Source of the DNA: Escherichia coli
Lineage (GTDB): Bacteria; Pseudomonadota; Gammaproteobacteria; Enterobacterales; Enterobacteriaceae
Assembly: GCF_041248615.1 (NCBI RefSeq)
Contig: NZ_CP158426.1
Strand: one strand, 5' to 3'
Length of the DNA stretch: 64,000 nt
The notes beneath the pieces are model-generated. The model saw nothing but the letters and a program-made list of their open reading frames with translations, had not been told where the DNA came from and ran no database searches. Both the position numbers and the translations under genes were made by a program. Below are positions 51,004-51,207 of the stretch, piece by piece (within the stretch, counting starts at the first letter, position 1; every line of letters starts with the position of its first letter).

Positions 51004-51088
51004 GGTGGGGTTCCCGAGCGGCCAAAGGGAGCAGACTGTAAATCTGCCGTCATCGACTTCGAAGGTTCGAATCCTTCCCCCACCACCA
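51004..51088 (+). tRNA. tyrT: tRNA-Tyr (anticodon GUA), first copy
   Basis: 85-nt sequence GGTGGGGTTCCCGAGCGGCCAAAGGGAGCAGACTGTAAATCTGCC...CCCCCACCACCA with encoded CCA end and long variable arm. Confidence 0.97.
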
Positions 51089-51122
51089 TCTCAAGCATTA
51101 CCTCAAAATTTGAATTACCCCT

Positions 51123-51207
51123 GGTGGGGTTCCCGAGCGGCCAAAGGGAGCAGACTGTAAATCTGCCGTCATCGACTTCGAAGGTTCGAATCCTTCCCCC
51201 ACCACCA
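51123..51207 (+). tRNA. tyrV: tRNA-Tyr (anticodon GUA), second copy
   Basis: Identical 85-nt tRNA sequence 34 bp downstream of the first copy. Confidence 0.97.

Follow-up and report, generated by a model that had tools for sequence, protein, structure and literature searches.

Tandem identical tRNA-Tyr genes with a 34-bp spacer represent the commonest allele of the tyrT-tyrV operon in Escherichia coli

Two identical tRNA-Tyr genes separated by only 34 bp raise the question of whether such a pair is a known operon, a recent duplication or a variant form of a locus that is better known from K-12. In an earlier note on the 64,000-nucleotide stretch of E. coli DNA analysed here (the window), two tRNA-Tyr(GUA) genes of 85 nt were described as identical over their full length and separated by a 34-bp spacer. 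ARAGORN predicted tRNA-Tyr genes with the anticodon GTA at 51004..51088 and 51123..51207, both on the plus strand, and no other tRNA gene anywhere in the 64 kb, and the Rfam tRNA model RF00005 gave 53.4 bits for each copy, the gathering score being 29. Both programs thus call the two genes, at exactly the positions that had been given; alignment of the copies showed the 85-mers to be identical, and the interval 51089-51122 comprises 34 nt. The genes are of class II with a long variable arm and an encoded CCA (ending ACCACCA), and each copy is identical (85/85) to K-12 tyrT and tyrV, i.e. to the functionally characterised tRNA-Tyr1, which suggests that both tRNAs are expressed and aminoacylated with tyrosine. 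Two identical 85-mers 119 bp apart cannot be produced by chance. The third E. coli tRNA-Tyr gene, tyrU (tRNA-Tyr2), is located elsewhere, where it is co-transcribed with tRNA-Thr and tRNA-Gly genes (PMC2887954); it has the isoacceptor family and the GUA anticodon in common with tyrT and tyrV, and the Tyr2-type variable arm (CACAGAC, a 2-nt difference) is absent from both copies in the window.

Over the interval 50845-51926 the sequence shows 100% identity with E. coli NRZ14408 (NZ_LT599825.1), for which the RefSeq gene order is purU, two tRNA-Tyr genes, three RtT sRNAs and the convergent narI-narJ-narH genes, with the RtT sRNAs carrying the product text 'processed from tyrT transcript'. In the window purU (formyltetrahydrofolate deformylase; 50002..50844, plus strand; a 280-aa ORF, named from the RefSeq annotation of NZ_LT599825.1) lies upstream, which fixes the locus as the tyrT locus, and narI (51927-52604, minus strand; ORF list and RefSeq annotation) lies downstream. 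The pair is thus positioned between purU and narI, as expected of the tyrTV operon, and megablast returned a match to the locus in 5,425 of the 5,426 complete E. coli genomes. Taking our best explanation as a whole, with all the parts discussed below, we are highly confident in identifying the locus with the tyrT-tyrV (tyrTV) stable-RNA operon of E. coli. The tyrT locus is among the longest-studied of bacterial genes, and the pair reported here is already known, both tRNA genes and the RtT copies being present in the RefSeq annotation. Three points were absent from the earlier note: the identity of the operon as tyrTV, the RtT repeats within the tyrTV unit, and the difference between the 34-bp spacer and the 209-bp spacer of K-12.

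The far boundary of the intergenic space available to the tyrT transcription unit is marked by an intrinsic terminator of the convergent narGHJI operon (51887..51908, minus strand), which was predicted in a terminator scan from a 9-bp stem (6 GC pairs) and the T run after it. The sequence GTAGGTCGGATAAGCGAAGCGCATCCGACAA (51832-51862), located between this terminator and the RtT repeats, resembles, as judged by eye, a repetitive extragenic palindrome (REP). Elsewhere in the same 64-kb window, Rfam searches identified three further RNA elements with scores above the gathering score: the STnc180 sRNA (2131-2333, minus strand; 198.8 bits), the Hfq-binding RNA STnc490 (8771-8894, minus strand; 146.4 bits) and the tryptophan operon leader (17762-17855, plus strand; 93.1 bits).

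In the older K-12 literature, tyrT is described as FIS-activated and under stringent control, with Rho-dependent termination inside the repeats. In the window the region separating purU from the first tRNA gene (50845-51003) is identical, over 159/159 nt, to the K-12 tyrT promoter region. It begins with the upstream part of the tyrT promoter (50845..50925, plus strand), which we take to be the FIS-binding upstream activating region, followed by the promoter itself (50926..50960, plus strand), identified in a promoter scan and identical to that of K-12. The latter consists of the -35 element TTTACA (50926-50931), a 16-bp spacer, a TG-extended -10 element TATGAT (50948-50953) and the discriminator GCGCCCC (50954-50960), corresponding to a sigma-70-type match at 10/12 hexamer positions plus the TG. 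Then comes a putative precursor 5' leader of approximately 43 nt (50961..51003, plus strand) that RNase P would remove; its sequence is identical to K-12 and its start at 50961 is placed from what we assume to be the K-12 transcription start. The TTTACA/TATGAT match was the only promoter-like site that the scan detected upstream on the plus strand, and neither a promoter nor a terminator was found on that strand between the tyrT promoter and the second tRNA gene. The observation in the earlier note of a single promoter with a GC-rich discriminator is thereby upheld, and the identity of this promoter to that of K-12 suggests that it drives both genes, i.e. that tyrT and tyrV are co-transcribed in this strain as well.

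The two genes have been described to 'share the tyrT promoter' (PMC2887954), and this promoter has served as a model in which the G/C-rich discriminator governs the response to supercoiling (PMC8422995). From a single sigma-70 promoter with a G/C-rich discriminator, one transcript would be expected, comprising a leader of about 43 nt, tRNA-Tyr, the 34-nt spacer, an identical tRNA-Tyr and three RtT units. Each transcript would yield two tRNA-Tyr1 with RtT RNAs as additional products, and the second gene would double the dosage of a tRNA that is invariant in the family.

In K-12 the tyrT operon (tyrT-tyrV-rttR/tpr) occupies the same position between purU and narI, and the promoter, the leader, both tRNAs and the 34 nt preceding tyrV are identical to those in the window. 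The two differ in that the K-12 spacer is 209 bp long and includes a fourth, diverged RtT unit, whereas the window spacer TCTCAAGCATTACCTCAAAATTTGAATTACCCCT (51089..51122, plus strand; tyrT trailer and tyrV leader) is 34 bp long, is without that unit and is identical to the 34 nt with which the K-12 spacer ends. Consequently, the sequence directly after the first tRNA is CCATCTCAAG in the window and CCATAATTCA in K-12. When 175 bp are removed from K-12 (1645-1819 of the K-12 locus, L002), the result equals 50845-51207 of the window exactly (363/363 nt). This 175-bp difference is bordered by 20-nt direct repeats, AATCCTTCCCCCACCACCAT, which coincide with the 3' terminus of the tRNA on one side and with that of the RtT unit on the other. 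In a pattern search five copies of the 20-mer were found in the window, all on the plus strand (51070..51089 and at 51189, 51367, 51545, the last of these with one mismatch, and 51724), compared with 0 expected by chance.

To what extent the two forms are represented in E. coli was determined among 5,426 complete genomes with junction-specific queries and strict E-value limits, the junction query being built such that K-12-type loci give only 67% coverage. The 34-bp junction was present in 2,909/5,426 genomes (54%). A spacer-specific query of 154 nt (K-12, L002 1645-1798) detected the K-12 form in about 1,920/5,426 (35%), in agreement with the 1,921 genomes that had a partial junction match only. 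About 596/5,426 (11%) had neither form, and the sole genome of this category that was examined, EC958 (ST131), has a single tRNA-Tyr gene. Whole-locus megablast was used for the range of architectures only and not for frequencies, since pieces of the repeats were split or joined unpredictably. A 183-nt query consisting of leader, tRNA and trailer, designed for single-gene recombinants, was dropped and gave no count; two-gene genomes reached 82% coverage with it because the 10 nt before tyrV resemble the end of the leader. The window thus holds the majority allele and the K-12 reference the minority allele. While the spacer does not have the 209-bp RtT-bearing architecture of K-12, the 34-bp junction is present in more than half of the E. 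coli genomes, and we therefore read the difference as allelic variation within the operon and as no ground for excluding the pair from it.

Downstream of tyrV, a repeat search and alignment of the units delineated three tandem repeats of approximately 178 bp (51212..51748, plus strand; spacing 178 and 179), which are 94-95% identical to the reference copy and which each close with the last 19 nt of the tRNA. The RtT family (RF00391; gathering score 45) accordingly has three matches after the second tRNA gene, all on the plus strand and all full length (model positions 1-130): copy 1 at 51254..51385 (trailer type; 128.2 bits; RtT sRNA in RefSeq), copy 2 at 51432..51563 (127 bits) and copy 3 at 51611..51742 (131.2 bits). 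Compared with K-12, the three trailer units are 94-98% identical. When aligned to the tRNA, the RtT units look like copies of tRNA-Tyr whose T-loop is interrupted, between TTCGA and ATCC, by about 69 nt; a literature search, the original RtT paper being outside its coverage, returned no prior description of a tRNA-like origin of RtT, and RtT is no longer referred to in version 3 of the CoCoNuTs preprint (PMC10542128).

The RtT unit in the K-12 spacer is of a different kind. Over the whole unit its identity to the trailer units is only about 71%, compared with 94-98% among the trailer units themselves. K-12, O157:H7, E. albertii and many other genera possess this spacer-type paralogue, which the window allele lacks. 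All 19 spacer RtTs from other genera and E. albertii are 91-100% identical to the K-12 spacer RtT, compared with 80-85% to the K-12 trailer RtTs, with the E. albertii copy being 96% identical to the former. Since they are closer to the K-12 spacer copy than to the trailers, the RtT-bearing spacer is old.

To survey the family, one genome per species was scanned for the pattern '...CCACCA, 15-45 nt, tRNA-Tyr', giving 69 Enterobacteriaceae loci. Among these, 39 have a tRNA, a short spacer (22-39 nt) and a tRNA, 17 have an RtT between the two tRNAs, nine have an upstream chimera followed by tRNA, short spacer and tRNA, and four are truncated or have another architecture; both spacer forms thus recur among the 69 species. 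In approximately nine species (Citrobacter, Kosakonia and Trabulsiella) this conserved chimera comes first behind the tyrT promoter and leader. In it, a degenerate 5' part of tRNA-Tyr (GCA at the anticodon position) joins a spacer-type RtT at GGTTCGA, with two intact tRNA-Tyr genes downstream (loci compared: L003, L005, L011, L038, L042, L045, L063 and L066).

These data bear on the direction of change. The 34-bp spacer most likely originated by deletion between the 20-nt direct repeats of the tRNA 3' end and the RtT end, and this deletion has probably been recurrent. The reverse, that the 34-bp spacer is ancestral, that the 209-bp K-12 spacer was formed by insertion of an RtT (e.g. by unequal crossing-over or import from another lineage) and that the window allele has lost nothing, we regard as unlikely, while still deserving some weight. 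Short spacers are the commoner form both among the species loci (39 plain plus nine with the upstream chimera vs 17 with an RtT) and in E. coli (54% vs 35%), and this majority would fit a history in which the short spacer is ancient and recombination spread the RtT-bearing form later. However, at about 71% identity to the trailer units the spacer RtT is a distinct paralogue, which rules out that a trailer was copied recently, and no fewer than 10 genera as well as E. albertii carry it in the same place, 91-100% identical to the K-12 copy. Recurrent deletion between the 20-nt repeats is a more parsimonious explanation than repeated insertion of one and the same paralogue at one site. On these grounds we infer deletion, and not insertion, as the direction of change.

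The spacer-type RtT is conserved between genera (91-100%), yet it is missing from about 65% of the complete E. coli genomes, including the window. Should it have a function of its own, for example in tyrT processing or through the stringent-response effect that has been reported for RtT, a phenotypic difference between the 34-bp and 209-bp alleles would follow, and the tyrT 3' end would in most E. coli mature without the RNase E site known from K-12; we consider this combination improbable.

The full identity of the two tRNA copies, together with a repeat that reaches a few bases past the genes (92 nt at 99% identity, 50999-51090 vs 51118-51209) and the existence of single-gene genomes at this locus such as EC958, could be taken to mean that a single gene was duplicated recently in this strain alone, the copies being identical because they are young, or was doubled in assembly. 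This is effectively refuted. As many as 2,909 complete E. coli genomes share the junction, 48 of the 69 Enterobacteriaceae species loci have tandem tRNA-Tyr genes 22-39 nt apart, and the flanks outside the tRNA genes are unlike each other. Moreover, the same tRNA-Tyr 85-mer recurs unchanged in each of the 69 species, so that copies of any age should be identical and their identity is no sign of a recent duplication; for the same reason, gene conversion was rejected as a necessary cause of the identity. Tandem copies are identical in 54 of the 65 species that have them, one copy with a Tyr2-type variable arm (2-nt difference) is present in eight species of the 69 loci, E. albertii included, and Citrobacter sp. 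MGH106 has three tandem tRNA-Tyr copies. Judged from this conservation, the identity of the copies reflects strong purifying selection and is silent on the age of the duplication.

That either of two open frames crossing the locus, a 161-aa frame on the minus strand (50940-51425) or a 110-aa frame on the plus strand (51124-51456), is a real gene overlapped by the tRNAs has next to no probability: both are long for random sequence, but neither matches Pfam at E up to 1 or has a RefSeq CDS in this genome or K-12, the antisense frame differs in extent in K-12 and O157 and is interrupted in Nissle 1917, which has a 33-nt spacer, and the 175-bp indel between the alleles is not divisible by 3. The antisense frame (50940..51425; 161 codons with a TTG start, from the ORF list), which crosses the promoter, both tRNAs and RtT copy 1, corresponds to 201 codons in K-12 and O157 and to 53 plus 99 codons in Nissle 1917. 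As the earlier note held for the crossing frames, it is an artefact and not a gene: the three longest crossing ORFs gave no Pfam match, RefSeq has no CDS over these frames in this genome or in K-12, and their extent is not conserved between strains. ORF calls within 50927-51783 should hence be ignored. A further frame is tpr, the K-12 version of which we take to encode a protamine-like protein. As read from the sequence, a tpr-like frame of 24 codons is open in RtT copy 3 of the window (51632..51706, plus strand), whereas the K-12 frame has 29 codons and lies in the first trailer unit. In the window the homologous frames in copies 1 (51285-51314) and 2 stop after nine codons. That the frame is open in different units, and that PGAP annotates no tpr in this genome or in K-12, argues against a conserved protein gene.

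The spacer allele has a consequence for the maturation of the predicted precursor. By analogy with K-12, RNase P would cut at the 5' end of each tRNA, while RNase E together with 3'-to-5' exonucleases would free and trim the 3' ends with their encoded CCA. In K-12, RNase E cleavage downstream of tyrT has been mapped to CCAU|AAUUC (PMC2241853, Table 3). In the window the first tRNA is instead followed by CCAUCUCAAGC and the K-12 site is absent, such that another route of separation would be needed. We infer that the two tRNAs would be separated either by a cut elsewhere, within the A/U-rich spacer stretch CUCAAAAUUUGAAUUA, or by RNase P at the 5' end of tyrV combined with exonucleolytic trimming. 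In the minimum free energy fold predicted for a 290-nt dicistronic precursor, the 5' strand of copy 1 pairs with the 3' strand of copy 2. Because the identical acceptor strands pair across the copies in this way, the predicted fold is uninformative with respect to the spacer and gives no support for native folding.

Tandem identical genes had also been described in the earlier note as recombination-prone, and the E. coli population bears this out. Among the matches listed, the locus varies between one and two tRNA-Tyr genes and between 0 and five RtT units, some with IS4 insertions, and the spacer occurs in the two forms discussed above and as a 33-nt variant in Nissle 1917. In a subset of genomes the IS4-family transposase gene is situated between an RtT unit and narI (L075 1637-2836; H42, H45, H74, H79 and H80). 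Both B2 strains examined, EC958 and Nissle 1917, carry desaturase genes (fatty acid/acyl-CoA desaturase and sterol desaturase family) in a block that starts 16 nt past the last ...CCACCA end, after the single tRNA in EC958 and after an RtT in Nissle 1917, and the junction CCACCATCACT(C/T)GATTCC is common to both (EC958, L072 2288-2304; Nissle 1917, L074 2584-2600). The repeat formed by the tRNA 3' end may be a marker of an island junction.

For an operon that is this well known, the present analysis makes only modest additions: the 34-bp spacer is the most frequent allele in E. coli, it differs from K-12 by an exact, repeat-bounded indel of 175 bp, and the unit absent from it is a conserved and distinct RtT paralogue. 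Primers, recombineering arms and processing models derived from K-12 do not transfer directly to most E. coli. Finally, through its short and long direct repeats, the tyrT-tyrV locus is a hotspot of structural variation, which bears on genome assembly and strain typing.
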